Source: Patescibacteria group bacterium
GTDB lineage: Bacteria > Patescibacteriota > Patescibacteriia > UBA10025 > JAHIVO01
DNA: 64,000 bases
Direction: 5' to 3'
Assembly: GCA_041660605.1 (NCBI GenBank)
Contig: JBAZWB010000001.1
Location: 137,295-201,294 of the forward strand
Positions 33,379 to 63,176 of the stretch are shown piece by piece. The stretch's first letter is position 1. Each line of letters begins with the position of its first letter. The position numbers were made by a program, and so were the translations under genes. The notes below the pieces were generated by a model, which was not told the origin of the DNA, searched no databases, and saw nothing but the letters and a program-made list of their open reading frames with translations.

Positions 33379-36300
33379 GTGACTTTACAACGATTTTTCA
33401 ACAAAAACACGCCTAATTGGCTGACAAAACCAAAAAGGGGTAATAGGGGGAAAGAAATTGATTTTAAAAGCTATCCTGCGTTACTCACCATTGAGCAGGT
33501 TGGTGAGATTTTTAATATTCACGCAAACACCGTACGCAATTGGGACCGAACAGGCAAGCTTAAGGCGGTGAGAATGGGCAGCAGGCGTGACAGACGCTAT
33601 CCAAAAGAAATGGTGCAAAAAATATATCTGGAAATGCACCCAAAGGAAACGGAAGATAAAAAGGAATCAAACGAAAAGACAGCTTTACCTGCTCCGGAAG
33701 TCAGCAAATACATAATTCAACCCGGTTTTTCTTTTAATAAAATACGCCTGCTGTTAATCAGCAAGCGGTTTACTGTTTTTGTTTACTCCGTAATCATGGT
33801 GGCCGTAGCTTTTGTAACTGTTCAGGTTTCCTTTTTTGCTTATGTTTATACTATTCGTGCCGAGGAAAAGCCTCCGGAAGAATATACTCTGACCATTAAT
33901 CCTACTGTGGTAAAAGGCTGGCAAAATCCGGATAAGGCAAAAGAGATTGAAACCAAGACGAATTCTCCCATAAGTGATTTTACGGAAAAAAATGCCGCGA
34001 TTTTTCACAATAAGCCGGTAGTGTCGCCGACTGAAGCGCCAGCTGTCCCAATAAAAGCGGAAGAAGTTTTGCCGGCGGCTAACACTAACCATGAGACTAT
34101 AACTGACACCAATGTAAATATAAACACCGCTGTCCCACCCCCCAGTCCAGAGCCACCGCCAGCCAATTCTAATCTGAATCAGGCAGTCACGCCGGCCAAT
34201 ACCAATGTTAATGTAAATACAAATACCAACAGCAATAGCAATGCTAATGCGAATACTAATTCTGAGAGCGTTAACACTAATAGTGAGAATACCAATACCA
34301 ACTTAAATTCCAATTCCAACGCTAATACGGGGGTGGAATCTGATCTGAATGCAAATACTAATACCTCCGTACCTGTTGAGGGACAGCCGCAGGTTAAAGT
34401 TTTAGGCGAGGAAACCAGCCAGGTAGGCGAGGTAATAGAAACGGCGCAGGAGAATATTTTTGAAGCCAGCGGCTATGCCTTTCCCGATACGGTACCGGAA
34501 TTGGCGAAATTAAAAAGCGTGAAAATAATATACTCCCTGGCCGCTGATACTTATCCGGACAACGAGGACGTCATTACTTTGAGCTACTCCCTGGATAACG
34601 GGGATTCCTGGCAAACGGCGGATTCATTCGCCCTGCTGGATAATGTCAGTAACAGCACCCACGGCGGTTATTGGGAGGTATCTTTAAATAATATTGATAT
34701 AAAAGATTTTGCAAAGATCCGCGCACGCGTTTCTTATAACGCCGTACCTAGTGATAAAGACGCAAAAGCTTACCTCGATGGCATAATTCTGGAAGCGGTA
34801 GTCAAAAATCCTGAACCGGCCGTAGTTGAGATTCAAAACAGCGTTGAAATAGAAAAGACAGACGTCAAAATTGACGAGCAGCCGGTCGTCAGCGTGGCTG
34901 TCGAGCAGGAAAGTTTTTTCTCTTTTATTGGGGCAGCTTCACAGACGCGCGAAGTCAAGGACATTGAGCTGGTGGATCCTTCCGGTGAAGCTATCAAGGA
35001 GGTAAATTATGACCTGCAGGAAGTGCAGGAAGGAAAAACAATAAAAGCTGAATATGCGATTCAAACCGATAATTTTGACAAACCCGGACGCTATCAAGTA
35101 AAAATGCAGATAGAGCAGGACGGAGTTACCGAAGAAGTGACGCAGGAATTCAACTGGGGCGTATTGGCTATAAATCCCGACCAGTCTATTTACCAGGCGG
35201 GACAGCCAGCCATGCTCTCTATCGGCGTGCTGGATGAAACCGGAAATATGGTCTGCGACGCGGATGTCACCCTGGAGATTACCAATCCAGACGGAGAAGT
35301 GACCATAAAAAAAACCAGCGATGGCGGAATAACCGTCAGCCAGTACTGCACTTATAAAGGAGAATTCAAGGGTCCGGACTATTATACAGATTACATTCCG
35401 TCAGTCCCCGGTACTTATAAAATGAAATTATCGGCTACACATCACAGCGGCACCAATGTCATAAATGACAGTTTTGAAGCGCAATTATTCCCTGAATACA
35501 CCATCAAGCGGACCGGACCAACCCGCGTCTTCCCATATATTTATCAGCCTATGGTCCTGGAGGTAACTGCCCAAAAAGATTTTGAGGGAGAAATCACGGA
35601 AGTGGTGCCGGATGTTTTTGAAGTAAAAGACACCGATGACGCTCAGATGCGCAGGTTTACGAGCGGCACAGTAATATACAAGGAAATAGTTTGGCAGCGT
35701 GCTTTGGCCGCGGGGCAGACGATGAAATTAAGTTATAATTTCAAAACCCCGGAAAAAAGTCCGGCACTCTATTTCGTGGGTCCGGCCAGGGTAGGCGACT
35801 GGAATGAGGGGCGCGAGTGGCAGATGGCCATTGATGTGACTTATATGTACGTCCTGGCTAAGAACGCCTCTGCGCCGAGCGGATGGACTGACGATACGGC
35901 CACTTTTGATAATAAATATTTACGTGGCGCGGCGACGTTCAGCTCAACCGGTGGCGGTGCCGCGACGCACGCTCCCACGATCCACCATAATAATGTAAAT
36001 CCCTCCACTGATGCTGCTGGTACCACCTGTACACGCCGTTGCGGTGCCGTGGCGACTCTTGCCCATACTCATACGTCCAGTAACCCAACGATCGGTGATG
36101 CCAGTAATGATCCCGCTTATCACACTTTTTATGTCTGGAAAAACAATACCGGCGTCCCGGCCAATATCCCCCAGAATGCCTTTGGCTTTTTTGATGCCAA
36201 CCCGGGCGGTTCCTGGACACGACTTAGCGCGGCCGACAGCCGTTTAGTCAAACTGGACAATTCGCATACAACCGGCGGTACTGATACGCATTCACATACG

Positions 36301-39300
36301 GTCACCTGGCAGTCACTCGCTGCCGCCAGCGGTAGTTCAAGCTCGCTTGACCCTCTTTTAGGAGATGGTACTGCGGCTAGCGTACATGGGCATTTTGCGC
36401 CAGCGTTTGGATCCACGGATTCGCAAACATCCGTTCCCCAGTATGTGACGACCTTGATTTATGAGCAAACGAACGCCACTCCGCCAGCCATTCCGACCGG
36501 TTATATTGGATTGTTTGATGCCGATCCAGGCGCGGGCTGGACAGTGATTTCTGACGGTGCACTTGAGGACTACTACCAGAGATTTATCCGCGGCGATGCC
36601 ACGACTGAAGGTACCAAGGCCGGCGCAAATACAACCGACCACGCAGAAGTAACGAGCGGTGCTTCGGACGCGCCTGACACAAATGCGCTCGGCAGCGTTG
36701 GAACGGTTTATTCCGGCCCTAACCATACGCATACCATCACCACCGGCTTTAATACCGAGGACCATACGCCTTCGTATGTTGACTTTGTGGTAGCGCAATA
36801 CACTGGTGCATCATCGACAATCAATCTTTCCGGCGTGGCATATCAGGAAAATGAGAGCAGTCCGATTAACGGAAGTTCAGTCAATAAAACAGTAAATTTA
36901 CTGGTTAATGGAGCGGCCACTGCCTGCGGCGGAGCGGCCTGCACTGATGAAATAACGACGTCGGACGGCGCCTGGGCCATTACCGGCATAACAGCCGTGA
37001 GCGGTGACATTATCACCGTTTTCCTAAATGACGAGACGGAAGAAGGCACGACGGTATTTAAAAGCGACGGCGTGACCCAGACGAATATAAATATATTCCA
37101 AAACGCGGTTATCGTGCGCAATGATACCGGTACTTCCATTACTAATGCCAATCTTGAGAGCGGCGACCGGGATGCCGGCGATAATGATATTAAGTTTGAT
37201 GTTTCTTCCAGTAATGTCACGGTTGATTCCGGCTTTGAACTGCATGTCTGGACGGGCGATACGTATGACCCGGGAGGTACGGTCTCAACTAACGCGACTG
37301 GCGGCGACGTGCATGTGGATGACAGCGCTACAATATACTTCGATACTGCCACGAGCCAGGTCGGACTCGGAACCATAGTCGATGCCAGCGCGACGCTCAA
37401 CCTTGACGCGGCCACCACTTTTGGCGGCGATGTCACTATAAATTCTACCGGCACCTGGAATAACACAACTGCAAACCTGTCACTGACTATCCCAGGCAGT
37501 TTGCAGAATAATGGCACATTTAACGCCGGTACAGGCACCTATACTTTTAACGGAGCAACCAAGACATTCAGCGGCACGACCGCGACTACCATTCCTAGCG
37601 TGTCGGTTTCCGGCACATTGCAGAATAACGGTACTTTAACCGTCTCATCGGCATTGGCTGGCGGAGGCACCTTGACTAATGGCGCTACCGGCGCCTTGCA
37701 TATTGATGTGGCCGCCGCCAGTCTGACCTTAACAACTCTGACCGCCTCGGCTTCCGGCAATACGGTGGACTACGGCTATGCCGGTGCACAGACGGTAAAA
37801 GCTGTTACTTATCACCATCTATCCTTCAGTGGCAGCGGGGCCAAAACCTTGACCAGCTTAACTACGGTCAATGGTGATCTTACCTGGAGCGGCACGGCCA
37901 CCGGCACCAGCGCCTCTAGCCTGATTGTCGGCGGGAATCTGGTTATCAACGACACTGCCAATTTTTCCGCCGGTGCCGTGAACCTGACTGTCATGGGCAC
38001 CACGAGCATTACCGGTACGCTGACTTTTAATTCTAGCACTGGTACGAAGATACTGACCGGCGCCGTGACCATTAATGCCAATGGCACCTGGACTAATTCC
38101 GGCAATTCAGCTTTGTGGTTTAAAGGCGGGCTGACTAATAACAGCGCCAATACCTTCACCGCCGGCTCTGGTGCCTATGCTTTTTACACAAACGATCAGG
38201 CTATCGGCGGCACCAACGCCATCTCTATTCCCAATGTGAACGTTCCCACCATTACTTTGACTAATAACGGCACGCTCACCGTGACGACGCAGCTCACTGG
38301 TTCTGGAGGCATAACAAATTCCGCAACCGGCGCCCTTCATATTGATGCTGCCAGCTTTTCCTTGACCACCCTGACTGCCTCGGCCTCCGGCAATACCGTG
38401 GACTATGGCTATGCCGGCGTGCAAACTGTCCACGACAACACTTATCACCACCTGACCTTGAGCGGCAGCGGAGATAAGACAATGACTACGAATACGCGGA
38501 CTATCGGCGGCAATCTCACCTTGAGCGGTACGGCGACGGCGACTACCAATGCCTCAGGTACGACGACAGTGACCGGGGATGTTATTATCAATACCGGGAC
38601 GACGCTCACTGTGGCTGTAGCTTTTGTAGTCAATGGCGGTGATATTACGGGTGACGGTACGCTGACTTATACCGGTACGCCGATTATCTATCTCAATGGA
38701 ACCGGTAACCTTGGTGGCGCGACCGCCTGGACATTCTACAGTTTAAATTTAGCTGCCAGCGGTGGAACAGCGACGACGACGGCAATCGGTGCCGGACAAA
38801 TAACGATCGCGTCCACTCTGACGCTGGTCTACTATTATAATGCGGGAAACGACACGGAAAGTTTCCACCACCTGAACGCCGGGCCAAAGACCTGGACATT
38901 GAGCGGGTCGGGCACGCCATTCATTAAAAATGCAACATTTACGCCAGCTACCTCGACATTCATCTACTCAGGGACAGGGAGCACAAATATCACGGGGGCG
39001 ACCTACAATAACCTCACCTTGCAGCCTTCTTCTGGCACCCCGACCTATACTCTTGCAGATAGTACGGCGTACACAATTGGCGGTAACCTGGTCATGAGTT
39101 CAACCGCAAATTTAACAGTATCCGCTGGAACGTCCATAATTACCATGACTGGTACCTCCAATACCATCACCGGTGGCGGACAGACGATTTACGACCTGAC
39201 CATCAATCCTGCCACTGCCGGGACTATTACGTTGCAGACCTCCGGGCTGACGTTGACGCGCAATTTGATTGTTTCTAGCGGCGATATCTTCTCCGTTGGT

Positions 39301-42300
39301 GCCATCGCCCTGACTGTGACTGGTACTTCCACCATTACTGGTACGATCAATATTACCAGTGCTACTGGCACCAAGATATTTACCGGCCTGGTGACCGTCA
39401 GCACGACCACCGGTGTCTGGAATAATTCCGGCAATTCAGCCGTGACCTTCCGTGGCGGGATAACCAATAATAATACCTTCACCGCAGGCAGTGGCGTGCA
39501 TACCTTTGATACCAACAGCCAAGCCCTGACTGGAACCTTTTCCATCCCCAGCGTGACCGTGACCAGCCCTACCACCCTGACCAATGACGGCACGCTCACC
39601 ATATCAACGGCCCTGTCCGGAACTGGAGGCCTGACAAACAGTGCCACGGGCACATTGAATATCGGCGGCACGTCCGGTATCACCACGATTACTGCCTCAG
39701 CTTCCGGCAATACGGTGAACTATACCGGCGGCGTGCAGACCGTCCACATTAATACCTATCACCATCTAACCCTGAGCGGCAGTGGCGCGAAAACCATGAC
39801 CAGTGTACAAACAGTAAATGGAAATTTGACGCTCTCCGGTACGGTGACGGCAACTATCAGCTCCTCATTTGGCGTGGGGCTAGATGTAATTATCAATACA
39901 GGGACGACACTTACCGTAGCCGCTCAATTAATTGTTAGTGGCGGGGATATTACGGGTGACGGCACGATGACGTATACCGGAACGCCGACGGTCTATCTGA
40001 TCGGTACCGGTAGTTTCGGAGGCGCGAATGCCTGGAGCTTCTATAATTTGACTTTTGCTATCTCAAGTGGTGCAGCAACGACGACCACGGCAACCGGCGC
40101 CGGGCAAATAACGGTCGCCTCCGTCCTGGCATTGTCATATTGGTTCAATGGAGACAGTGATGTAAACCATTACTTGGATGCTGGCTCAAAGACATGGACG
40201 CTGTCAGGCAGCGGCACGCCGTTTCCTTATAACAGAGCTTATGCGCAATTAATTCCCAATGCCTCGACATTCATATACAGCGGAACAAGCGCGACGAATG
40301 TCCGGTACGCGCCCTACAATAACCTCACTCTGTCCGGCGCCGCGACCTATACCCAGTTGACAGGAGGCTGTACCGTGTCCGGCGCTTTGAATGTGGCTAA
40401 TGGCGCTACTTTTTCTATTCCTACTAGTATGACGGTAACAAATTCCGGGACATTCACGCTTAACACCTCTGGTACCGTGAGTGGGGCGGGAACCGTAAAA
40501 TTTACCAGTACTTCGGCTGGTCCGGGGACGGGCGGTACGCTTAGCGCGGTTGTCCAGTATGATTCATCAGGCGGAAGTATCGCCAGCACCACCTTTGACG
40601 CGCGCACCTACGTAGGGGCAGTGGATATTTATGGTAATAATTCCTCCAATTCAGTCACGGCGGCGTCTGGCACATACACGTTTTCGGGAAATTTAAGCAT
40701 TACGCAAGACGGCACCGGCACGACTACCCTGGATCTTAATACCAGCGATCCCACAGTCGGCGTTACCGGCACGACTACTATTGATGCCAGCACCATTCTC
40801 TCGGCTTCCAGCGCCAGCGCTATGTCCCTAGGCGATGATTTTACCAATAACGGCACTTTCACCCACAACAGCGGAAGCGTTGCTCTGACCACTACCGCCA
40901 CAGCGACTATCACGGGCAATACTACTTTCAATAACTTGTCAGTCAGCGGCATCGGCGCCGCCAAGACGATTACTTTCACCGCCAGTTCGGTCACGACAGT
41001 CGTCGGCACCTGGACTGTCACCGGTACGGCCGGTAATCTTATCACCCTCCAATCCTCCAGCTCGCCGACCCAGTGGACGATCAATCCGACCGTCGCTTCG
41101 GTTAGTTATGTTCAGGTATCGGATTCTAATAATACCGGTGTTGCTTTCTGCGCCACCTATTCCACTGATACGGGGGATAATAATACCAACTGGTCAGTCA
41201 GCTCCGGCGGCGTCTGCACTACTATCAATGTCTCCGGCACCATTTATACCGACGAGGGTTCCACTGTTTATAACTGCTCCAGTAACAATCTAACAGTCAG
41301 GATCAAGGTAAACGGCGTCGGTTCCTATTCAGCTGACTGTACGGCGGCTGGCGGCACCTTTGCTGTCAGTAACGTCTCCGTCGGCGCCATCAATGATGTT
41401 GTGACTGTCTTCCTGGACAACGAGACGCCCAATGCCGTTACCATTACTAAGACTGCTGACACTACGTCTAATCTTACTGATATTAATTTATATCAGAATA
41501 AGGCTATTGTCCGGCACGAAAGCGCATCGGCCATTACCAACGCTAACCTTGACCAATATGATTTTGCCAATGAAGGGAGTGACGGCGATATAGGTTTTAC
41601 CGTTACCACAAACAATATTACAGTTGCCTCCGGCTGGGAGCTGCATGTCTGGACCGGCAAGACATATAATCCGGGCGGTACGGTAGCGACCAACGCCACT
41701 GGCGGCGATCTGCATGTGGACGATTCCGGCGTCTTTACCACGGGCGGCACGACGACTGTCGGTGCAAACCTAGCCATTGATACCGGTGCTACCATGACTG
41801 CCGGCGCTTACGACCTGACCGTAACTGGCACGACGGGTATTACTGGCACCATGACCATATCATCTGCTACTGGCACGAAGATATTGACCGGCTCTGTGAC
41901 CGTAAATTCCGGCGGCACCTGGACGAATTCCGGCAATTCCAATGTGGAGTTCCAGGGTGGTTTGACTAATAACAGCGCCAATACATTTACCGCCGGCACC
42001 GGTGGCTATGCCTTTGATACGAATAGCCAGGCCATTGGCGGTACCAACGCCATTTCTATTCCCAGCGTGACTGTGACTGGCGTTACCCTAACCAATAACG
42101 GTACGCTCACGGTGACGACAGCATTGGCTGGCTCTGGTGGCATCACCAATGCAACAACCGGCGCGCTCCATATAGATGTCGCAGCGGCCAGCTTTACCCT
42201 GACCACGCTCACTGCTTCTGCCTCCGGCAATACCGTGGATTACGGCTATGCCGGTGCGCAGACCGTGAAGGCGACCACTTACCATCACTTGATCTTGAGC

Positions 42301-45300
42301 ACCAGTGGGGCAAAGACCATGACTAATGTAACGACGATCAATGGCAATCTCACCATGACCGGTACCGTCACAGCCTCCACGAGCACCTCGGGCCAAACCA
42401 CGGTGGCCGGCGACGTCAGCATCGGTACGGGGACGACCCTGACCGTGGATACGGCGAATCTGGTGGTCAATGGCGGTGACATCACTGGTGACGGTACGTT
42501 GACATATAATGGTACACCGACGGTATCACTTGATGGGAACGGCAGTTTCGGTGGGAATACCGCCTGGTCATTCTGGAATCTTACGTTCGCTGATGCAGCG
42601 TGTGCCACATTATATTCGAACGCGACAGGCAGTGGTGGGATAACGGTCAATAATGTCATGACCACCGCAAGTCAGCCCGGGGCGTGCATAGAAGTTGATG
42701 AAGTCAGTAATGCACATGACCTATACGCCGGATCAAAGACCTGGACGATCGCCGGCAGCGGCACGTCGTACGTGAAGAATAGGGGAGTATTGACGCCGGA
42801 AACCTCGACTTTCATTTACAGCGGTACTGGTTCAACGACAGTTGCCCTTGGACCGTATAATAATCTCACCTTACAGCCCTCGACCGGCACACCGACGTAT
42901 ACGCTGCAGAATTCCACGTACTCAATCGGCGGCAACCTGGTTATTGTGCCGGATATCACAGCCGGCACCTCTACCGTTAATATGACCGGCACTTCCAACA
43001 CCATCACGGGTGGCGGGCGGTCAATATATAACCTGACCATTAATCCAGCGACAGCCGGCACGATTACTTTGCAGACCTCCGGGCTGACGGTGGCTCACAA
43101 CTTGATTGTTTCCAGCGGCGATATTTTTTCTGTTGGCGCGGTGGACCTGACGGTGACCGGCACCTCCACAATCACCGGTACGCTCACTTTATCGTCTGCC
43201 ACTGGCACGAAGATTTTTACCGGCCTGGTGACGGTCAGCACGACCACCGGTACCTGGAACAATTCCGGCAATTCAGCTATAACATTCCAGGGCGGGCTGA
43301 CCAATAATAATGTATTTACAGCCGGTACCGGTGTCTATACCTTCGATACCAATGACCAGGCCATCGGCGGCACCAGCACTATCGCCATTCCCAGCGTAAC
43401 CGTGACTACTATTACCCTGACCAATAATGGCACTCTTACCGTCACCACGGCGCTGGCCGGTACCGGCGGCATTACGAACGACACAACTGGTTCACTCCAT
43501 ATAGACGTGGCGGCAGCCAGCTTAACTCTGACGACCCTTACCGCTACCGCTTCCGGCAATACGGTTGATTATGGGTATGCCGGCGCGCAGACCGTCCACG
43601 ACAACAGTTATCACCACCTGACCTTGAGCGGCAGCGGAGACAAGACCATGCCCGCCGGCACTAAGAATATAGGCGGTAATTTGACTTTGAGCGGTACCGC
43701 GACCGCTACTACATATAGCGGAGTAGGCACAACATCAGTAACCGGCGATGTCAGTATTGGTACGGGAACAACATTGACCATCGCTAAAGACATACTCGTC
43801 AGTGGCGGGGACATTACCGGTGACGGGAACTTGACATACATTAATACGCCGATTGTTTATCTGTCCGGTGCTGGTAACTTCGGTGGTGCGACCAATTGGA
43901 GCTTCTATGATTTGATTTTTTCTATCAGCAGCAGTCCAAACACAACGACCACGGCGATAGGCGCAGGACAGATAACGGTCGCGTCAGTTCTGACAATTAG
44001 CAGTTGGAATGATGGATTTGGGGAGACATATTATCATAATCTGGACGCTGGCTCAAAGACCTGGACTTTGAGCGGATCCGGTACGCCGTTTACTGGAAAT
44101 GCGACACTGACGCCAAGTGCCTCGACCTTCGTTTACAGCGGGACAAGCGCAACGACAGTCGACGCAGGACCTTACTACAACCTCAGCCTGCAGCCCGCCT
44201 CTCCGCCGGACTATGTGATCTATACCATCGGGGACACCACAGTCGGCGGCAATCTCGTCATGAGCACGCTTGCGCAAAAATTAATTACCCAAGTTGGAAC
44301 TTCCACAGTTACCATGACGGGCACCTCCAATACTATCACCAGCGGTGGTCAGTCATTATACAATCTGACCATTAACCCAAGTTCAGCAGGCACCATCACG
44401 GTGCAAACTGACGATTTCCAGGTGGATGGCGCGCTTGACATCGCTGATAACGATACATTCTCCATCCCTACGGGCCGCACGGTTACCAGCATTGGGGCGA
44501 TCACCTTGAATACGTCCGGTACGGTAAGCGGAGCGGGAACGCTATCCTTAGATTATCGTTCGACTGGCCTAGGGACTGGCGGTACGGTGAGCTGCATCGT
44601 CCGGTTTGACACGACCAGTGCGAGTATTGGAGCCGGTACGTTTGACGCCCGCACGTATGGTGGCTTGGTACAATTGTATAATAATCAGCAGACATTAGAT
44701 CGGGTGATTACCGCACCGGCTACTGGCACGTTTGTATTCAGCGGAGGCCTCACGATGAGGGTTAATAATCAGTACGGAGAGCTGACAGCCGATTTTGACG
44801 ATACGACTGACCCGACGGTCACGGTGACAGGCAGCGTTACGATTCCTGCGGGCGGCACATTCCTGGCACCTAGCAGTACGACGCTATCCGTTGGCGCGAG
44901 CTTCTCAAACTCCGGTACCTTCACCCACAACTCCGGCACGGTGGCCCTGACTACCTCGGCGGCCGCGACAATAACAGGCAATACCACCTTTAATAACCTG
45001 TCAGTGACCGGCATCGGCGCAGCCAAGGCCATCACCTTCACCGGCAGTTCAGTGACGACGGTGGCCGGCACCTGGACCGTTACCGGCACGGCCGGCAACC
45101 TGATCACCCTGCAGTCCTCGGATACCAATAACTGGACTATCAACCCTGCGGCCGCCTCGGTTTCCTACGCCAGCATCTCCCGGTCAACTAATACCGGCAT
45201 CTCGTTCTGCGCCATTTATTCTACCAATGGCGGCAATAATGCCGGATGGAATATCTCAATCGGGCCTATTTGTGAGTCAGTTTCCATTACGGGGATCATC

Positions 45301-48300
45301 TATACGGATGAAGGGTCGACGTTATATAATTGCGCATCGAATAATCTGACTATTGCCGTCAAGGTTAATGGTTATGGTACGTACAGCAGTACCTGTACAA
45401 CCGCTGACGGGGAATATGTATTAAGTGACGTGATGGTTGATGGGACCAATGATGTGCTGACTGTTTTTCTGAATAATGAAACGCCAAACGCCGTAGCCGT
45501 CTCAAAAATTGCCGATACGCCAGCGGGTATTAATAATTTAAATCTGTACCAGGATAAAGTAATCGTCCGGCACGAAAGCTCTTCAGCCATGACCAATGCG
45601 AATCTGGACAAGTATGATTTCGTCAACGAAGGCAGTGACGGCGATATAGGGTTTACTGTCACGACTAATAATATTACCGTGGCCTCCGGCTGGGAGCTGC
45701 ACGTCTGGACTGGCGATACGTATGACCCGGGCGGTACGGTTACGACCAACGCGACCGGCGGTGATCTGCACGTGGACGATAGTGCGGTAGTCTATCTGGA
45801 TACGGCTACTAATGCCATTGGCCGGGATATTCTGGTTGACGGTAGCGCCACCCTGAACATTGATGCTGATACGACCGTCTCCGGCGGCGATATCACCATT
45901 TCAGGAAGCGGGGCGACGGTTACAAAATCCACCGGCACGCCAACTGTGACAATTACCGGCACCGGCAGTATCGGCGGCGGCACGACGCCCTCAATAAGCT
46001 TTTACAGCCTGACCGTCGGCACGGCTACAGCCGCCAGCACGACAGCTGCAAATAATATTTCTGTTACCAATACCCTTAATGTCGATACCAGCGATTCTTT
46101 GGCTATTGCCTCGGGAATGACTGTCACACATAGCGGCGCCACCCTGACTTTGAATGGCACGATATCCGGCGCTGGGCGCTTAACCTATAAGAGCTCCACG
46201 GCTTTCCCGACCGGCGGTACCATTTCTTCAATATTACGCTTTGATTCCTCGTCTAATAATCAAGATTTGAGTTCGCGGACCTATGGCGGTAACGTGGAAA
46301 TTTACGGCAACAACGCATCAAATATTGTTACGGCAGCATCAGGTACTTATACAATCAGTGGTAGCTTGACCACAAGCCAGGATGGGACAGGCGCTACCGC
46401 GTTGGATTTGAATGCCAACGCCCCCAATCTGACGGTCAATGGCGCGTTGACCGTCGGTGCTAATACGATCCTCAGCTCCACTGCCAACATACTAGATGTG
46501 AAGGGTAATCTAACTAATAATGGAACATTTTCTAATAACGGCGGCACGGTACGCCTCAGTGGCACTTCACAGCAGACCATGTCCGGCTCCTGGAATGGGG
46601 CTCAACTTGCCGACCTGACAGTTACCAATAATTCCGGGTCTGATCCGGATACCAGTCCATCAGTTATTTTTTCCTCCTCAGTTTCACTTAATGGCACCTT
46701 TACTGCCGCTACCGGCGGAACCAAGCTAAGGTTCAACACTGGCATCACTTTTTGGGCTTATGGCTTGACCCTAACGGGTTCAGCCGGCAATCTGGTTTAC
46801 CTGCGCAGTTCCACGTCGGGTACGGAAGTGACTTTTGAATACGGCGGTTTGGCCCAGAGCGTCACCTATGCTGATGTCAAAGACATGGACAATGGTGGTG
46901 GTACCGTCATAAACGCCACCGGAACCGGTAACGTCAATTCCGGCAATAATACCAACTGGGACTTCGGCTCTATCCGCGTAGCTGGTACGATTTATTCCAA
47001 TGACGGAGTAACGCCCTATAACTGCAGTTCGGACAATTTGACTATCAAGGTTTCGACGAATGGCGGGGCGGTTAATTCCGGCACCTGCACGGCAGCCAAC
47101 GGCACATTTGTCATGACTAATATAACTAAGCCCGGTGCCATAGACCAGCCAATTGCCCTGTTAATTGACAGCGGGGAAACACCGCAGGCGACTTCTGTCA
47201 CGTTGGCAGCCAGTACCCTTGGTGACGCGAATATGGATTTATACCAGAACCGACTGATTATTGACTCCGAGACCGGTACCACAATGACCGATATTTTATT
47301 GGATACAGCGGACAACAGCGGTGATGCCGGAATACGTTACGCTATTGCCAGCGGTAACCTAAGCGTGTCGAGCGGGCTCGGCTTGTGGGTATGGACTGGG
47401 AAGAACTTTACCCCCGGCGGGACAGTCACTACGCCGGCGTCCGGCACTGCTGCCGGAGGCGCTGGAGATGTCAATATTGCAGCCAGCGCGACGCTTAATA
47501 TGGCTGCCAACGCGCTTTCAGTCGGCGGCGATTTTACTAACAGTGGAACATTTACTATAACTTCAGGCCAGGCAACGACATTTACCGCCACGGGTACCGA
47601 TTTCGCGATTGACGACGGTACGGCAACTTTTCAGAATATTATTTTTAATGGTTCCGGCGGAGGCTGGTCATTTAGTTCAGCGGTAACCTTGTCAGGTGAT
47701 TTGACGATGACTGCCGGCATGCTTTCCGGCACCAGCGACATCACCGTCAATGGGAACGACATTACCGGCAATGGCACTATTAATTTAACGGGTGGCACGG
47801 TTTCCCTGCCGGATACCGGCAGTCTGGGAGGGGATGCGGCCTGGACGTTTTATAATCTTTCCCTGACTCAGGCAAGTTTTACTGATAAAACAACCACTGC
47901 CATCGGCAGCGGCAGTATCACTGTCAGCAATGTTTTAAGAGGCTATAGTGCTTATGACGCGGGTAGCGACCATGATTATTTCCATATTCTCGCGGCAGGG
48001 TCGAAAACGTGGATACTGTCAGGCACCGGCACTCCATTTGCGAATGGCGGTCTTCTCGTCGGCGATACTTCTACGTTCCGCTATACCGGCAACGGGGCGA
48101 CTAATATCGCTTCTGCCGAGGATGCTACTACGAATTATTATTATAACTTAGAGCTAAAACCATCCGGTACCGCCACTTATACCCTGCCTGACGCAATTGT
48201 TAGCACGCCCCAGCGAGTGAACGGCAATCTGATAATTGGCAACGGCACTAATTCAGTTACCGTCGATGGCACGACGAATAATCCATATTATAATATCGGC

Positions 48301-51300
48301 GGCAATGTTACCTGTACTACGGGTGCTGGGACGAATACTGTCCAAACCGGCACTGCTACCTGGGCCATCGCGGGTGATTTTGATCTCTCGAATTGCGACG
48401 TATTTACCGCGACTGCGGGGAACACTATTACGCTTTCCGGCACGAGCAAAACCTACACGCATAATAACCTGGCCGGCAACCCCTATAATTTGAATATTAC
48501 TGGCACGATTGCCGAATCAACGCCCGGCACCAACTATATTGATAATAACCTAACTATCAGCGGTACATTCACCAGCACGGCGGCTACTCTAGGCGTTGGC
48601 AATACTTTTACTAATAATGGTACGTTTAACGCGAATAATGGCGATGTTGTCTTCAGCGGCAGCAGCGGTATAATTGCCGGTTCCAGCACTACGACTTTCT
48701 TCGGCCTTTTCGTCCAGCCTACCGGCAGCGGCACGGTGACGGTCAATGGCTCCAATCCTACGGTAACGGACGACCTTTCTGTCGCTACCGGAGACACCCT
48801 CTCAATAAGCAGCGGGCAAATATTATCGCATACCGGCGGTACGATTGACCTGCTTGGAATAATGTCAGGCGACGGCCTGTTACGAATTACTAACGGATCG
48901 AGTGGTCCTGGCACGACCGGCACTCTCAATGTTGATGTGCGCTATGAAAATGGCATATCGGAGACCACGCTTGATGCCAGGACTTATGGCGGGGATGTGG
49001 AATTTTATATTGATTCTGAGGCTTTAATGTCAGCATCATCCCGGATGGCCAGCGGCACTTATAATTTCAATGGCAATTTGTACATAAATGCCGTCAATAA
49101 CGCCAATATTTCTTTAGAGGGGAATTTTAATAATCCAACGGTTAATGTCACCGGTAATATTGATTTTCTCGGATCGGGTCCTGGAATGGAAATCATCCAG
49201 ACAGGCACCGGCACCTGGACGGTCGGTGGAAATATCGATTTTACTGATGGCACTTATACGGCAACAACGGGAAATACGCTGACCATGAACGGCGCAGACG
49301 CCACTATTAATACCGGCGGCAATAGTTTGTATAATTTCAGCACTTCAGGCACCGGCATTATCACTACCGCATCTGCCATTACAGTGACTAATGATGTGAG
49401 TATCGGCACTGGCAGCACATTGCGCGCCAATACAGATACCAGCGTAGCGGGTGATTTGACTGGCGATGGCACGCTGACTTACACCAGCGGCACGCCTACG
49501 GTCACTATGTCTAATACAGGCAATATTGGCGGTGCGACAGCCTGGACATTTTACAATTTGACGCTGTCTGCTGATGCCTCCAGCGATTACACGACTACCG
49601 CTGCTGGCATCGGCAACATTAACATTGATAATGTTTTAACCACCGAATCGGCTGACTGCGGCGTGGACTGTTTTCGTTATCATTACCTTAATGGCGGGCT
49701 GAAGACCTGGACGCTCACTGGTTCCGGTACGCCGTTTATAAATAATGGATCATTGACGCCGGCAAGCTCTACCTTTGTTTTTTCAGGAACGTCAGCCACA
49801 ACTGTTGCCGGAGCGACGTACAATAATTTATTGCTCCTGCCGCCGAGCGGTACGCCAACCTATACGTTGGCCGGATCGCAATATATTGCCGGCGATTTTT
49901 CAATGGCGGCTGGACTAACCATGGATGCCGGTGCGTATACGGTTACGATGGCCGGCACAAACAACAGCATCATCAGTAACGGTCAAACACTGTATAATTT
50001 AACGATCGATCCGGCGACGACCGGCACTATTACTGTACAGACAGGCAATCTGACAGTCTCAAACAATCTGCGAATTGAAGCGGGCGATACTCTGGCCATC
50101 GACAACGGCGTGACGCTGGCCCACACCGGGAATGATTTGATCATCTTGGACAGCGCGAGTACGATTGCGGGTCCCGGCCGGCTGACTTACCGCAGCGCCA
50201 CGGCGTTTCCCACTGATGGTACGTTATCAGCTGGCCTGATCCTGCGGCTGGATACGACTAGTACCAACCAGACGATGAGCAGCCGGACTGATTATCAGCT
50301 GGTGGAAATCGACAACAGCGGAGCCACCGGCGGCCGGACGGTAACCATAGGTTCGGGTACTGCGCAGACCGTTACTACGTCGGGCGCTTTGTCCGTCCTG
50401 TCTTCCGGTAGCGGTTCAGTTGAGTTGGCGGGAGCGACATATAATCCAGCGGTCAATATCGGGGGAGACCTGAGCTACACGGCGGGAGGAGGGACGAAGA
50501 CCATAACGACCGGGACTGGCACCTGGACCGTTTCCGGCAATGTCAATCTGACTAATGGCACCTTTACCAAAAGCACCGGCCATACGCTTGTTATGAACGG
50601 TTCTTCTAAGACGCTTACTTCGGCTGCACAGATATTGGAGAACCTGACGCTTTCCGGCACCATTACGCTGGCTAATGCCACCCACACAGTCAATGGCAGC
50701 CTGACGTTAAGCGGAACGGTAACTGCCGGATCCTCTAATGTAACCATGACGGGTACGTCGAATACTATCGTCGGTGGTGGAAATATTTTAAGTACATTGA
50801 CCATAAATCCTTCATCCACCGGTACAATCACGTTACAGACCTCTGACTTAACTGTTTCCGGGACGCTGAGTGTTGCCGCAGACGATACATTGAGCATTGA
50901 TACCAGTCGCACTGTGACTGCTGTAGATACGTTAGTCATTAATGGCACCATTTCAGGCGCCGGACGTTTAACATTCAAGGGCTATACCTTCCCGGGTACC
51001 GGCACCGTGAGCTCAATCGTCCGGATGGACGCGACCGATGCCGGCTCAGGCCAGAATATCGGCGCCCGGACATTCGGCGGCTTAGTTGAGATATATAATA
51101 ATTCCGCCAGCAGTAACCGGATTGTTTCTCTGCAAAGCGGTACGTTCAATTTCAGCGGCGATGTCAATCTTACCGCCGCCAACAATCAAAATGTAACCCT
51201 CGATGGTTCGGGTAATGATTCCACCGTCAACATCACTGGTAACCTTGATTTCACTGGAGCAGGCTCCGGCAGTGAAATTATCGCTTCCGGCACCGGCACT

Positions 51301-53558: not shown

Positions 53559-54626
53559 ATGGTTAAACTAAAACGATTGTATGTCGTAATTTTAGCTCTT
53601 TTTTTAGTGGTAGCGTTTAACGTACCAGCCCTACCAGCCTGGGCTGCCAGTCTGTCTGATATGTCAGACACCTTGACTACGGCTGCTCAGAATACTGTTG
53701 CAAATCATACTATTCTCTTCACCACCCCGACTGGCGTTCCTGCAGGGCAGACAATCACCTTAACATTTGATACGGATTTTCAGGATCTGGCGGGTATCAC
53801 TGAGAATGACGTGGATATTGCCGATGACACCGTAGATTTAACAACTGCTGCCGACTGTACCGGCGCTGAACAGGCTAGCGTAGCCATGGCCAGCCCGACT
53901 TTAACGATTACCATCTGCGCTGGTGACGGTGGAGATATCGCGGCTGCCAGTAATGTAACTATTGAAATAGGTACTAATGCTACTGCCTCCGGTATTGGCG
54001 CTAATCAGATAAAGAATCCAGCCGCCGCGGAAACTTCCATGATTGCTTTAGCCGGCACGATGGCTGATTCCGGCACTCTTTCGGTAGTAACAATTGCAGA
54101 CGATAGCGTCGCGGTTACCGCCACGGTAAATCCTAGTATTACTTTTTCAATAACAGACACGGCTATTGGTTTTGGCGCTTTGACTTCAGCCAATGCCCGT
54201 TTTGCTACTGCAGATGGTAACGGCTCTGATACTGACAGCACCGCTGCCTTTACTATGGATGTATCCACAAATTCAACAAATGGTTATGCCATTACATATA
54301 ATGGTTCAACGCTGACTAGCGGAGCAGATACCATTACTGTAGCCAATATTACCAATGATGCAAATGGAACTGCTAATACGGAAGAGTTCGGCATGGGCTT
54401 GTCAGCCAGCGGAGACGCGACAGTTGCCGCTGCCTATGATCACAATGCGACAGCAGGCAATCGCGACTGGGCATTTATCGATGCCACGACCACCACGATT
54501 GTTTCCGAAAACGGCCCAACCGCCACGGAAACCATCAGCGCTTTCTTCCTGGCGAACATTTCCGGCAATACCGAAGCAGGCAGCTATTCAACCGCGATAA
54601 CCTATATTGCCACCGCCACTTTTTAG
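53559..54626 (+). CDS. Secreted protein (355 aa) whose C-terminal ~165 aa is homologous to the C-terminus of the giant protein
   Basis: Signal peptide (MVKLKRLYVVILALFLVVAFNVPALPAWAAS); C-terminus ...NGYAITYNGSTLTSG...EAGSYSTAITYIATATF versus giant ...NGYAITYYGTTLTGE...EAGEYSTAIIYIATATF. Confidence 0.8.
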   Translation: MVKLKRLYVVILALFLVVAFNVPALPAWAASLSDMSDTLTTAAQNTVANHTILFTTPTGVPAGQTITLTFDTDFQDLAGITENDVDIADDTVDLTTAADCTGAEQASVAMASPTLTITICAGDGGDIAAASNVTIEIGTNATASGIGANQIKNPAAAETSMIALAGTMADSGTLSVVTIADDSVAVTATVNPSITFSITDTAIGFGALTSANARFATADGNGSDTDSTAAFTMDVSTNSTNGYAITYNGSTLTSGADTITVANITNDANGTANTEEFGMGLSASGDATVAAAYDHNATAGNRDWAFIDATTTTIVSENGPTATETISAFFLANISGNTEAGSYSTAITYIATATF

Positions 54627-54708: not shown

Positions 54709-55638
54709 ATGCTTATGTCGAAAAAAAATATTATCGCTTTCAGCGCTATCCTGTTCTTTGCCTTTTTGGTGCTGCCGAAGATTTCGGCTGCACTGGAAGT
54801 AACGCCCGCTATACGCGAGGTTGATCTGGCTAAGGGAGAGAAGACCGTGGTCATGATTGAACTGCAGAATGAGGCCACAGAAACCATGCAATTAAACACG
54901 CAGGTGGTCAATTTTACGGCTAAAGATGAGATTTCCGGCGAGCCGGAATACAATCTGACCGGTACGCCTACTGGTATTGCTACCTGGACTACTGTACAGG
55001 CAGGCCCGATAGTTATCCAGCCTTCCGGCAAAGTAGAAGTCCCGGTAACTTTTGATACGCCTGCCACTGCTACACCCGGCGGCCACTACGTCGGGGTGGT
55101 TTTTAGTTTTGTAGAATCTGCCGCTGCGGCAACCAATAACAGCCTGAAGATTGAGTCAAAAGTGGCAGTACCAATATTAGCGACTGTCGCGGGCAACTTT
55201 ACGGAAAGCGCCAGGATTGTTGCTTTCAAAACAAATAAGACTAATTATACTTCCGGCCCGGTTAAATTTACCCTGCGTTATGAAAATACCGGCGCTGTTC
55301 ACCTGAAGCCTACCGGTAAAGTCACCGTAACCAGCATGTTCGGCAAGGTGGTGAAGGAAGCTACCATTAATACCGAATTAAGCGCAGTCCTGCCGGGGAC
55401 TATCAGGCAGTATGACGTCGCCAGCTGGAAAGACCTAGGCAGTGCTTTTGGCAAATATACCGCCAAGGTCACTCTGACATCAAGCGGCGTAGTCACTAAT
55501 GACACTTACGATTTTTGGGTATTTTCAACCACCGGCATTGTTATCGCGGTTGTCATATTATTAGTGGTTATGATCCTGATAGTTTTACTGATTAAGGCTT
55601 TAACCAAGAAAAAAACAGAAGCCCCGGCTGCTAAATAG
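54709..55638 (+). CDS. Cell-surface protein with signal peptide, beta-rich ectodomain of about 260 aa, C-terminal TM anchor and Lys-rich tail (paralog 1)
   Basis: N-terminal signal peptide, C-terminal IVIAVVILLVVMILIVLLIKALTKKKTEAPAAK; shares PGGHY and NTGAVHLKPTGKVTV motifs with the next gene. Confidence 0.75.
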   Translation: MLMSKKNIIAFSAILFFAFLVLPKISAALEVTPAIREVDLAKGEKTVVMIELQNEATETMQLNTQVVNFTAKDEISGEPEYNLTGTPTGIATWTTVQAGPIVIQPSGKVEVPVTFDTPATATPGGHYVGVVFSFVESAAAATNNSLKIESKVAVPILATVAGNFTESARIVAFKTNKTNYTSGPVKFTLRYENTGAVHLKPTGKVTVTSMFGKVVKEATINTELSAVLPGTIRQYDVASWKDLGSAFGKYTAKVTLTSSGVVTNDTYDFWVFSTTGIVIAVVILLVVMILIVLLIKALTKKKTEAPAAK

Positions 55639-55653
55639 CTTTTATAATAAGTT

Positions 55654-56661
55654 TTGTGTATGCATTGCATTGTGAAAAAAATTAATTTTCGCCTGATCTT
55701 CCTTTTTGCATTTGTTGTCGTTGGGACTCTGCTTTTGGGAAATGGAGCGCAAGCCGTGACGCTTATTCCGCCGTCGTTGGAAATTGGCTTAAAACCGGGC
55801 GCTGAATATGACACAGTTATAAAGCTTTTTAACGAAACTTCAAATACCATCAGTTTATATACTGAAGTAACCAATTTTTCCGCTAAGGGAGAAACCGGTC
55901 AGCCGGAATTTGATTTTGGCGGTGAGCTAATCGGCCTGGCAAAATGGATAAACGTGGAAAAAGGCCCGATCGTCATTGAGCCGGGAAAACGTTATGAAGT
56001 TCCGGTGGCCATCAAGACTCCTGTTGACGCCGATCCGGGCGGCCATTATGCGACCTTGTTTTTCAGCTCTTCTCCTCCGGAAGAAGGCCAGCTGCGCATT
56101 GCCTCAAAGGTAGGTACGCTGATCCTAGCGCGAGTCGACGGGGAAATAAAGGAAGCAGGAAGCATCACTGAATTCAGCGCTAGCAAAAAAACTTTTTCGA
56201 GTCTGCCGGTTGAATTTACCATTCGCTTCAGTAATTCCGGAAATGTCCATCTGAAGCCCACAGGAAAGATTGCTGTAAAAAATATTTTTGGGAAGGAAAC
56301 AGTTTCTATTGATTTTAACGCCAGCAAAGGAGCCACTCTGCCAAATACCGTACGCATGTATCAGGCTACCTGGGACAAGGGGCTGATCATTGATAAATCG
56401 GGCAATGTCTGGTCAGATTTCTGGCAGGGTTACAGCAATGAAAAAAACAATTTTGCCCTGGGCAAATATACCGCTGAATTAAGCATTACTGCTGGTACGC
56501 TGGAGAGCGTCAAGGACACCGCTAAGGTGGGTTTCTGGGTATTGCCCTGGCACATGATGCTGGTCTGGGGCTTACTAGCGGTTTTAGCGGTATTATTGAT
56601 TATATTTTTGATCAAGAAATATAACGCATGGATATTAAAAAAAGCGAAATCACAGCAATAA
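55654..56661 (+). CDS. Cell-surface protein with signal peptide and C-terminal TM anchor (paralog 2)
   Basis: DPGGHYATLFF, NSGNVHLKPTGKIAV; C-terminal LLAVLAVLLIIFLIKKYN...KKAKSQQ. Confidence 0.75.
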   Translation: MCMHCIVKKINFRLIFLFAFVVVGTLLLGNGAQAVTLIPPSLEIGLKPGAEYDTVIKLFNETSNTISLYTEVTNFSAKGETGQPEFDFGGELIGLAKWINVEKGPIVIEPGKRYEVPVAIKTPVDADPGGHYATLFFSSSPPEEGQLRIASKVGTLILARVDGEIKEAGSITEFSASKKTFSSLPVEFTIRFSNSGNVHLKPTGKIAVKNIFGKETVSIDFNASKGATLPNTVRMYQATWDKGLIIDKSGNVWSDFWQGYSNEKNNFALGKYTAELSITAGTLESVKDTAKVGFWVLPWHMMLVWGLLAVLAVLLIIFLIKKYNAWILKKAKSQQ

Positions 56662-56664
56662 GTA

Positions 56665-57576
56665 ATGAAAAAATCGTGCCCGTCATCAGTTAAATATTTT
56701 CGTATACTTTACGTGTTTGTCCCGCTATTAGTATTGATAGCGGGATATTCATTTGCCGAAGCGCAAGTGTCGCGTCAGGTTACGGTCACGGCCACAGTGC
56801 CGGAAAAACCGCCCATAGAAGAGCCGGATACTATTGTAATTTTCCGCGGCATCGCTTACCCCTCATCCACGGTCACTATTAATCAGGACGGTTCGGCTAT
56901 TTCTATTATAACTACCAATACCCAGGCGCAATTTGACGTTTCAGCCAAGGTGGATCCGGGCACTTACACTTTCACCATTATCGGCGTGGATACTGACGGG
57001 GTTGAGGGCAAGGTTTCCAATTTTACTTTGATGCTTTCAGAAGGGACGACTACCACCATCAGCGGGATATTTCTAGGACCGACTATTTCCATTGACGATA
57101 CCGTCATCGGGCCCGGAGAAACCGCCACCCTGGCCGGCACTACGGTGCCTGACAGCGAGGTTAATGTTACCGTCAGCTCGATTGGTACGGCCGCCGCCGC
57201 CGGCGATCCCCAGATTGCCGTGCATATCGCCAGTGCTGATTCAAACGGCCGCTGGCTGCAGCTTTTAAATGCCGACGAAATGGAAGCGGGAGATTATGAA
57301 GCAAAGGCGCAGTCAACAGAACCGCAGAATCATGCGGTTTCTGAATTCAGTAAAATCGTCGGTTTCCAGGTACAGGGGCAGACAGAGCCTGACCAATGCG
57401 CCGGCGCCTTGCCGGGCGATATCAACTGCGATACTTTTGTCAATCTGGTGGATTTCAGTATTTTGCTTTTTTATTGGGACAGCTCCAGCCCGGCTAATCC
57501 GCGGGCCGACATAAATACCGACGGGGTCGTTAATATTATTGATTTTAGCATTATGCTTTTTTACTGGACTGGATAA
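56665..57576 (+). CDS. Secreted Ig-like-domain protein with a C-terminal dockerin (two Ca-binding-loop-like repeats)
   Basis: GDINCDTFVNLVDFSILLFYW and ADINTDGVVNIIDFSIMLFYW form a dockerin type I-like duplicated segment. Confidence 0.7.
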   Translation: MKKSCPSSVKYFRILYVFVPLLVLIAGYSFAEAQVSRQVTVTATVPEKPPIEEPDTIVIFRGIAYPSSTVTINQDGSAISIITTNTQAQFDVSAKVDPGTYTFTIIGVDTDGVEGKVSNFTLMLSEGTTTTISGIFLGPTISIDDTVIGPGETATLAGTTVPDSEVNVTVSSIGTAAAAGDPQIAVHIASADSNGRWLQLLNADEMEAGDYEAKAQSTEPQNHAVSEFSKIVGFQVQGQTEPDQCAGALPGDINCDTFVNLVDFSILLFYWDSSSPANPRADINTDGVVNIIDFSIMLFYWTG

Positions 57577-57580
57577 ATAT

Positions 57581-58711: not shown

Positions 58712-58722
58712 CAGACCAGATT

Positions 58723-62270: not shown

Positions 62271-63176
62271 ATGGGATACGCTGAAACGCGCTATAACATT
62301 GAAAGAAATCCCGAAATAAAAGAACAGGAACCGGACGTTCGCGTGCCGCTGGTTGACATTGTCAGGCACGGCGATACCGATTATAAAGAATTGCGTGACC
62401 CTAGTTTCAAATTTGATCCGCAGGCTCTGGATTTTAAACTTGATGCCGAGCACCTGGATTTGAACGAGCAGGGGATTGAAAATATTCTCCAGACTGCAAT
62501 GCAGCTGTGCCAGTCTATTGATAAAGAAAAAGAGGTCGTTATGTTGGTTTCCAGCCCGAATTACAGGGCGCAATCAAGCATCCTGCTTATAGAGAAAATT
62601 TTGCAGGAAAATGGCATCGATGTATTGAATTCTTCGGCAGCCAAGCAGGCAGGGGCAAGTAAAGGCATTAGGTTGGTTGGAAATTTGCGGCAGATTGAGC
62701 AACGAGACTCTAATTTCAATCCGACTTGGAGCGCTGAGGACAAGAAATACCGGGAAGAGGATCCGCAAAGACAGAAAATAAGCGCACGCGAAGCGCACAC
62801 GGAAATTGCCGCCCGACTAGGTAAAACCGTTCCCGAGATTTTTACCAGAGATCATGACCAGCTGGATTTGGATTTTAGAAAGTGGCTGCGCCACATGATA
62901 AACATTGATCAAAATTTTGATGAAAAAACTAAAAAAGTCATTGCTGGCCGGAGAATCAGATTAATCTGCGCGACTCACGAAGAAGTGCCTGAAAAGTTTA
63001 TGCAAGAAGCACTGGGTGTGGAGGGTAATTTAGCAAAAGGCCAGGTAATGGAGATAAACGCACAGAATAAACTATCACCGGGCGAAAAAACGGCAGCGCA
63101 GGTAAGCTTGTTTGAGAAAGGAGAGGCAAGAGGTGCGCAGGGCAAGATTTCCATTTCATATGATAAAAAGGAGTAA
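62271..63176 (+). CDS. Histidine-phosphatase-superfamily-like protein (tentative)
   Basis: N-terminal VPLVDIVRHGDTDY resembles the RHG catalytic motif; otherwise unrecognised. Confidence 0.4.
   Translation: MGYAETRYNIERNPEIKEQEPDVRVPLVDIVRHGDTDYKELRDPSFKFDPQALDFKLDAEHLDLNEQGIENILQTAMQLCQSIDKEKEVVMLVSSPNYRAQSSILLIEKILQENGIDVLNSSAAKQAGASKGIRLVGNLRQIEQRDSNFNPTWSAEDKKYREEDPQRQKISAREAHTEIAARLGKTVPEIFTRDHDQLDLDFRKWLRHMINIDQNFDEKTKKVIAGRRIRLICATHEEVPEKFMQEALGVEGNLAKGQVMEINAQNKLSPGEKTAAQVSLFEKGEARGAQGKISISYDKKE

Follow-up and report, generated by a model that had tools for sequence, protein, structure and literature searches.

Nested duplications in the shaft of a giant Patescibacteria protein that may form the tip fibre of a Pam-like pilus

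How a single bacterial gene of 20 kb came to be built from repeats, and what its protein would do, are the questions raised by a stretch of DNA from a bacterium that belongs to the candidate phyla radiation (CPR), or Patescibacteria. The window, meaning the whole stretch of 64,000 nucleotides (nt) analysed here, covers positions 137,295 to 201,294 of contig JBAZWB010000001.1 (assembly GCA_041660605.1). It contains an open reading frame (ORF) at 33379..53412 (+; 20,034 nt, GTG start, no internal stop) for a giant protein of 6,677 amino acids (aa), which consists of a helix-turn-helix (HTH) domain, one transmembrane (TM) helix, an N-terminal unique region, a shaft of repeats, and a pilin domain of the Pam type. 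An earlier note on this DNA had proposed a super-repeat with a period of about 4.05 kb inside this gene. The explanation reached here joins a history of nested duplications to a role as a fibre at the tip of a pilus, and taken as a whole we consider it probable.

Every motif listed in the earlier note is present, within 10 nt of the position given there. The ELHVWTG motif, ELHVWTGDTYDPGGTV, occurs in exact copies at nt 37237 and 45694, with two substitutions at 41638, and with six at 47380, so that the intervals between copies are uneven (4,401, 4,056, and 1,686 nt). SGTIYTDEG lies at nt 41233 and has the variants TGIIYTDEG at 45289 and AGTIYSNDG at 46981, while TASASGNTVDYGYAG(A/V)QTV is found at nt 37741, 38374, 42211, and 43540, with a diverged form, TASASGNTVNYTGGVQTV, near 39685. 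Self dot-plots show long-period diagonals at both the protein and the DNA level. Whole-protein self-BLAST returned the trivial self match only, and masked chunks were used in its place; self-BLASTP of these chunks gives offsets of 1277–1352 aa at 60–72% identity (E down to 1e-148), in agreement with a BLOSUM dot-plot, and comparison of the protein with itself also reveals nested diagonals at an offset of about 442 aa. The DNA diagonals have 65–78% identity over 0.2–1.2 kb at offsets of 3831–3864 and 4056–4062 nt, and all are direct, with no inverted matches in the self-comparison of the gene.

Hidden Markov models (HMMs) built from the internal copies of the giant resolve the shaft into three modules, yielding four copies of K, four full copies of P with half or partial copies, and three full copies of Q with partial copies. 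K is a beta-rich domain of about 157 aa running from SGTIYTDEG..YNC to ELHVWTG..PGG, with copies at aa 1144, 2612, 3964, and 4527. P comprises 442 aa in two halves, Pa and Pb; full copies lie at aa 1520, 1962, 2797, and 3241, a Pa-only piece is at aa 1336, and Pb occurs without Pa three times beyond the full copies. Q, of about 280 aa, bears the end cap LRSS..W.I..V.Y..V.DS and is complete at aa 2331, 3682, and 4227, with partial copies reaching to aa 6515. The P module is itself tandemly duplicated, a nested level absent from the earlier note, as are the pilin domain and the pilus operon. In the repeat region, K, P, and Q have no match above threshold in Pfam-A, NCBIfam, or the PDB sequences, the best match of K being Phage_sheath_domII (E 0.015), which was judged to be noise. 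The three modules would be new domain families for annotation.

The first K domain, K1 (36808..37287, +; aa 1144–1303; 224 bits), is followed by a half P module of Pa only (37384..37920, +; aa 1336–1514; HMM positions 25–208 of 442, 182 bits). Block A (37915..41733, +; aa 1513–2785) then holds P at 37936–39258 and 39262–40542, Q at 40369–41208, and K2 at 41212–41688, and block B (41746..45789, +; aa 2790–4137) holds P at 41767–43098 and 43099–44427, Q at 44422–45264, and K3 at 45268–45744. In global alignment, the two blocks are colinear over 1,260 codons, with 67.1% amino acid and 66.3% nucleotide identity and one indel of 63 aa. Because of this indel, the P part recurs at an offset of 3.83 kb and the Q-K part at one of 4.06 kb; the period of about 4.05 kb therefore holds for the Q-K part and fails for the P part, and a constant period is rejected. 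Aligned by Smith-Waterman, blocks A and B score 4084, compared with 389 ± 20 after residue shuffles and 851 ± 89 after shuffles that keep 22-aa pieces. Reuse of low-complexity motifs as the source of the repeat was rejected on the contrast between 851 for the order-destroying shuffle and the observed 4084.

Beyond block B, the Q3 module (46057..46965, +; aa 4227–4529; 387 bits) makes a short K-Q unit with K3 and is followed by K4 (46957..47430, +; aa 4527–4684; 233 bits). The remainder of the shaft (47431..52923, +; aa 4685–6515) is a diverged mosaic of Pb and Q fragments, recognized by partial P and Q HMM matches, with internal offsets of 266–720 aa at 30–49% identity, and closes with the Q-type cap ..RVFLRSSSLGTQWNINVSG..V.NTNVRDS. 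The K-to-K units accordingly measure 1,467, 1,351, 563, and about 1,990 aa. A super-repeat with ordered sub-modules is thus real, as P-P-Q-K is present twice, but the earlier count of at least three super-repeats of about 1,350 aa with the same ordered sub-modules falls to two: the third K-to-K interval (563 aa) lacks a full P module and the fourth is the mosaic, so neither can stand as an equal unit. The phase implied earlier, with K first, also has to be shifted to P-P-Q-K, because K2 and K3 are 69% identical, K1 and K2 are 44% identical, and K1 is closest to the first K of an orthologue.

The copies had been held to be old and maintained, and this is borne out. Between copies, the proportion of synonymous differences (pS) is 0.58–0.82, which is saturated, and the nonsynonymous divergence (dN) is 0.22–0.72. 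With saturated synonymous divergence (dS) and dN/dS of about 0.14–0.27, the duplications are old and under purifying selection. Blocks A and B are 0.74, 0.80, and 0.45 identical at codon positions 1, 2, and 3. The pair of segments compared in the earlier note as differing in DNA (37741–37820 and 38374–38453) is identical at 62 of 80 nt, with the first 16 aa the same. Recent slippage or gene conversion was rejected given the saturated synonymous sites, the 66% DNA identity, and a longest exact DNA repeat in the gene of 33 nt (38442–38474 and 43608–43640). Since this repeat is so short, assembly collapse is of no concern. A k=31 contig of the Logan assembly (run SRR6484324) is identical to the window over 43611–63675, although the two assemblies may share a source of reads. 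The contig ends at 43611 because the 33-nt repeat sits exactly there, which explains the fragmentation at short k. As far as these data go, both results uphold the view that the repeat is neither an assembly artefact nor recent slippage.

Copies in the same position are most alike (P1-P1 68%, P2-P2 69%), other pairs of P being 61–66% identical. In the four-taxon site count of block duplication vs independent duplications, 16 sites support the former and 9 and 9 the alternatives. The margin in favor of block duplication is modest, and the case for it comes mainly from colinearity. The sequences nevertheless make it very likely, with architecture and history judged together, that P was first duplicated in tandem and that all of P-P-Q-K, a block of some 1,300 aa, was then copied once in this lineage.

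Comparison with relatives places these events. The window P copies are 58–67% identical to one another and at most 39% identical to P of any other representative; the expansion of P and the block duplication are therefore lineage-specific, though old. K2 and K3 are mutual best matches (69%), and K1, Q3, and K4 are each closer to a copy in another protein. K1 best matches the K at aa 1054 of P0127 (67%) rather than another K of the giant, and by these matches it is the oldest K copy, orthologous to the first K of relatives. Q3 is 76% identical to Q of P0157, and the best match of K4 is the K at aa 2041 of the same protein (61%). In P0157, the orthologous K3-Q3-K4 segment (66% identity) lies about 2,490 aa nearer the N-terminus. 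Among orthologues, the ends of the giant are shared and the central shaft differs in length by thousands of residues. The protein of L018/P0127 (4,118–4,128 aa) and that of L023 (Kerfeldbacteria MKparc4; about 4,790 aa) align to the giant over the N-terminal 1,400 aa or so and the C-terminal 900–1,400 aa, and not over the center, which measures 1,430 aa in L018/P0127, 2,300 aa in L023, and 3,860 aa in the window protein.

The K domain also defines a wider family. Among 1.84 billion proteins, the K profile matches 1,477 representatives at E <= 1e-3, nearly all of 1.2–7.7 thousand aa and with 1–12 K domains each; the giant itself is present as the identical 6,677-aa protein P0123. In the 147 proteins with the best scores, the commonest K-to-K spacing is 450–650 aa, which matches the short K-Q unit, and the units of 1,352 and 1,468 aa in the window protein lie at the long end. 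The same module grammar is present in relatives, and K-anchored units of variable content are, from these sequences, a family trait. Some relatives are nearly perfectly periodic and far more regular than the window protein (L038 on Peribacteria contig CAYUBO010000006, L020, P0121, P0122, and P0124), with 7–12 K-Q units at a period of 520–650 aa. A scan of GTDB species-representative genomes found 38 K-domain loci, mostly with Patescibacteria-lineage names; three are from Omnitrophota, and seven are third-party annotation records labelled "uncultured Gammaproteobacteria", labels that we doubt. For these long, compositionally biased ORFs, the default filters of hmmsearch missed matches to K and to the pilin domain, and --max was used.

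What structure would such a shaft have? The AlphaFold2 (AF2) model of P (predicted local distance difference test score, pLDDT, 86.8; predicted template modelling score, pTM, 0.86) is all-beta with short, regularly spaced strands. In the AF2 model of Q-K, computed from an alignment of colinear Q-K rows, the Q part is likewise all-beta with short strands (pLDDT 85–94), and Q3 is confidently modelled as an all-beta solenoid. P and Q are thus predicted with high confidence to be beta-solenoids. BLOSUM autocorrelation gives no clean coil period (top lags 21, 27–28, and 42). The shaft is estimated to be some 80–110 nm long if a coil is taken as about 25 aa and 0.48 nm. Against this picture, the K domain is beta-rich in its AF2 model with pLDDT below 50 over its second half, and a Foldseek search of the P and Q-K models against the PDB gives no significant fold match (TM-scores 0.2–0.34). 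The nearest PDB neighbors of P are the autotransporter passenger Ag43 (7ko9; E 9e-3, probability 0.91, TM-score 0.28) and other such passengers, followed by phage tailspikes, RsaA, and lyases of polysaccharide lyase family 6 (PL6). Self-associating autotransporters such as Ag43, TibA, and pertactin likewise have passengers that are long right-handed beta-solenoids and serve as surface adhesins. However, the giant lacks a C-terminal beta-barrel translocator in a Pfam search and any sequence homology to them, and the host here is a monoderm-like CPR bacterium.

The C-terminus of the giant points to a function. Its last domain (52924..53409, +; aa 6516–6677) matches NCBIfam NF058581, CPR_Pam_pilin_C, with 58.3 bits when the last 170 aa are searched alone and 52.4 bits within a 1,003-aa query, against a cutoff of 55. 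The next gene (53559..54626, +) encodes a Pam-type pilin of 355 aa (71.9 bits against the same cutoff) with a signal-peptide-like N-terminus, an N-terminal domain, and a C-terminal pilin domain. The C-termini of giant and pilin are 51% identical (E 3e-48). Downstream, two paralogous genes (54709..56661, +) encode proteins of 309 and 335 aa that are 37% identical to each other (E 1e-57). In both, a signal-peptide-like N-terminus leads into a beta-rich body, which is followed by a C-terminal TM helix and a basic tail. They match no family in Pfam or NCBIfam beyond weak hits to WxLIP_PGBD (DUF916; E 0.017 and 0.13).

The Pam pilus, first described in 2026, is a CPR-specific pilus of the donor-strand type; PamA, PamB, and PamT serve as its pilins, and PamC and PamD, which resemble PapD/FimC and bear a C-terminal TM helix, as its chaperones (Troman et al., bioRxiv 10.64898/2026.03.03.709456). 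In the proposed model, a subunit takes up in its C-terminal domain the linker strand of the preceding one, and PamT, which has an acceptor domain only, is placed at the tip; all components are reported to have an N-terminal Sec signal peptide (Troman et al., bioRxiv 10.64898/2026.03.03.709456). The window locus shares with this system the truncated immunoglobulin (Ig) pilin domain at the C-terminus of both the giant and the adjacent pilin, an operon with two membrane-anchored proteins bearing a C-terminal TM helix that are putative chaperones, and a CPR-restricted distribution. In an alignment read by eye, 8 of 9 pilins have a conserved D..V.VTATV.P segment before the domain; giants appear to lack D..V.VTATV, as does PamT, and the next strand, S(L/I)TFSI, is common to giants and pilins.

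The operon is also conserved. The giant is its first gene, and the full gene order recurs in L006, L008, L012, L019, L021, L023, and L039, with the order kept as far as the locus reaches in L026 (through the homologue of the 303-aa gene) and L004 (through a chaperone-like gene). Counting these two partial cases, the order giant, pilin, chaperone-like, dockerin, cohesin-like is found in at least nine loci. The Pam pilin domain is also the last domain of the giants of L004, L008, L018, L019, L021, L023, and L026, and the C-termini of relatives' giants score 33–81 bits on NF058581. A pilin gene follows the giant in each of those loci except L018, which ends just past it. When 8 giants are aligned with 9 pilins, the pilin domain of the giant and that of its neighbor prove to be of the same subtype within each genome.

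We therefore propose, with moderate confidence, that the giant is a tip fibre or adhesin, variable in length, at the distal end of a Pam-like donor-strand pilus. The giant would be exported, and its C-terminal pilin domain would accept a donor strand from the neighboring pilin, an acceptance that would put the giant at the distal tip. Block duplication in the shaft would alter its length and so tune its reach, and the K domains may serve as joints or binding knobs. A comparable layout exists in the FimH and PapG tip adhesins of the chaperone-usher pili of Gram-negative bacteria, which are about 300 aa long, usher-dependent, and equipped with a lectin domain. These adhesins resemble the giant as proposed here in that their C-terminal pilin domain, which takes the donor strand and initiates the fibre, carries a receptor-binding or extended part. 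The likeness is one of layout only, and the adhesins differ in their small size and need for an usher.

Several points weigh against the tip-fibre role, which is one that we infer. The NF058581 score of the giant is borderline. On the PamT equivalog NF058579 (cutoff 240 bits), its C-terminus reaches only 26.9 bits, far below the cutoff, and the pilin 20.7 bits. Where PamT is a single domain of about 240 aa, the giant has about 6,500 aa before its pilin domain. In place of a simple Sec signal peptide, it has an HTH followed by a hydrophobic segment that lies about 125 aa into the chain, and this TM anchor, if uncleaved, would keep the supposed tip attached to the cell. The 309- and 335-aa proteins are putative PamC/PamD-like chaperones, assigned by their architecture. 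As further differences from the Pam system, the window operon lacks the ATP-synthase neighborhood of Pam, has dockerin and cohesin-like genes, for which M. amalyticus has no described counterpart, and comes from a lineage near Kerfeldbacteria rather than Saccharimonadia or Microgenomatia.

The N-terminus is where another explanation gains its footing. An HTH_17/MerR/excisionase-type DNA-binding domain (33481..33618, +; aa 35–80) scores 30.7 bits on Pfam HTH_17 (cutoff 27), NCBIfam matches to BldC/excisionase being below their cutoffs, and is predicted to be cytoplasmic. The single hydrophobic segment that follows (33754..33852, +; aa ~126–158, LLLISKRFTVFVYSVIMVAVAFVTVQVSFFAYVY), read from the translation, is a putative membrane anchor or long signal-anchor. 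The GTG start is supported since orthologues align from residue 5–8 onward, and the HTH N-terminus is also found in 11 other K-domain giants among the representatives and in 7 loci. In ENA, the gene is called from a Met further along, which gives a protein of 6,592 aa and leaves out the HTH. The giant could then be a stand-alone, membrane-anchored fibre or adhesin and not a pilus subunit, with its pilin-like C-terminus a cap, a distal nucleation site, or the remnant of a fusion. Conservation of the HTH and single TM helix in relatives suggests that the anchor is retained, and the 51% identity to the adjacent pilin could come from local duplication or fusion. This explanation is plausible because a location at the tip leaves the conserved HTH-TM N-terminus unexplained. 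However, the whole operon is syntenic, and the pilin domain is kept on giants in at least seven other genomes and co-varies in subtype with the cognate pilin, so that a maintained interaction is favored over a remnant. A tethered, pilus-independent fibre is for these reasons unlikely, though it deserves to be taken seriously.

A more speculative scheme, which we regard as rather improbable, involves both ends of the chain. A class of proteins conserved in Patescibacteria unites a cytoplasmic HTH, a TM helix, a beta-solenoid shaft of about 100 nm, and a Pam-type acceptor in one polypeptide; the giant would be the founding tip subunit of a donor-strand pilus, export or cleavage of which subunit would free or re-localize the HTH and thereby couple deployment of the fibre to transcription, its reach being tuned by block duplication and loss.

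It is very improbable that the P and Q beta-helices are instead catalytic, as in depolymerases of the tailspike or polysaccharide-lyase type, with the repeats multiplying modules that degrade the envelopes of hosts. Tailspikes (HK620 and Sf6) and PL6 alginate lyases do appear as weak Foldseek neighbors, but these matches are non-significant (E >= 0.4, TM-score <= 0.25), no enzyme family is matched in Pfam or NCBIfam, and the best structural neighbors of P are the non-enzymatic autotransporter passengers. The composition of the shaft, with 51% Thr, Gly, Ser, and Asn and only 121 Lys and Arg in 5,372 aa, also argues against catalysis. That the repeat is an assembly chimera or collapse, or low-complexity motif reuse, as the metagenomic origin, the strongly biased composition, and the break of the k=31 contig might suggest, has a negligible chance of being correct, given that the copies are only 66% identical in DNA, that a 33-nt repeat is too short to mislead a k=141 assembly or reads of 100 nt and more, that the frame is intact for 20 kb with divergence concentrated at third codon positions, and that the shuffle control and the shared grammar of relatives both speak against it.

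A tip fibre of this kind would bear on the lifestyle of its bearers. Cells of CPR bacteria rely on attachment to a host, and the giant is a candidate element of host contact. The structure of the Pam pilus was described only in 2026, and nothing but the small PamT has been put forward as its tip or adhesin. This locus, at least seven relatives of the same layout, and roughly 1,500 K-domain representatives point to a large unannotated family of giant fibres, which in the window protein and those relatives is tied to a Pam-type pilus by the shared pilin domain. The duplication of a whole block within the shaft offers a natural experiment on the evolution of fibre length. The super-repeat alone is ordinary for a giant adhesin; the interest lies in the K/P/Q family, the new CPR pilus, and the cytoplasmic HTH.

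In titin, nebulin, and giant bacterial adhesins, modules stand in ordered groups that are then duplicated, with Ig/Fn3 or alpha-helical folds. The giant shares with them hierarchical repetition and variable length among homologues, and differs in its beta-solenoid fold and in having only two copies of the top-level block. A general context for giant bacterial proteins is available (West-Roberts et al., bioRxiv 10.1101/2023.11.21.568195). The Pa half of P (about 210–228 aa) has a wider distribution, occurring in tandem arrays at 40–61% identity in surface proteins that are MshQ-like (DUF6701) or linked to the type IX secretion system (T9SS) or to S8 peptidases. More than 100 proteins have such arrays, and their sources include Bacteroidota, Zixibacteria, Proteobacteria, Chloroflexota, and further phyla. 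Unlike the giant, these proteins lack K, Pb, Q, the Pam pilin domain, and the HTH. Nine of the 120 listed Pa homologues have K domains (P0037, P0038, P0063, P0078, P0089, P0096, P0106, P0111, and P0114), and a subset of those nine shows the K-P-Q grammar; members with a source name in NCBI are Patescibacteria. Some Pa homologues carry the precomputed Pfam identifiers PF28238, PF28247, and PF28347, which may overlap Pa.

Between the membrane anchor and K1, the N-terminal region has features of its own. Immediately outside the anchor, at about 34069–34368, comes a linker of low complexity that is rich in Asn (NTNVNVNTNTNSNSNANANTN...). At about 35840–36800, in the conserved part of the region, are three His-rich repeats of about 110 aa with the pattern P.GW...F.A.PG..W.. 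and HTHT, THSHT, and NHTHT motifs. These repeats have no Pfam match even at E <= 5 and could form a metal-binding or collar-like domain.

The remainder of the operon (56665..61185, +) encodes a 303-aa protein with Ig and dockerin domains and two cohesin-like proteins (Pfam) that share a cohesin-like N-terminal domain. One of these, of 390 aa, has a C-terminal TM helix; the other, of 820 aa, is a multi-TM protein and includes a CarboxypepD_reg domain. A pairing of cohesin and dockerin in a pilus operon has not been described for Pam. The 309- and 335-aa proteins share their layout of signal peptide, Ig-like body, and C-terminal TM helix with proteins of Gram-positive WxL loci, and Pam-type chaperones may be linked to WxL-locus proteins.

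Around the operon are chromosomal genes for a TyrRS/TrpRS-type synthetase, RNase J, UvrA, UvrC, GroEL, and phosphoenolpyruvate (PEP) synthase. The sole match to an ATP synthase gene flanking the operon is one of 18 bits to ATP synthase delta (cutoff 129), for 62271–63176, and the next gene downstream encodes DnaG primase. The window GroEL shares 90% identity with Patescibacteria sequences and 82% with one from Kerfeldbacteria. Upstream of the giant, a 671-aa protein without a family match (30890–32905) has an N-terminal TM helix and, near its C-terminus, two pilin-like R..SD...L..A...YY.D...YP motifs.

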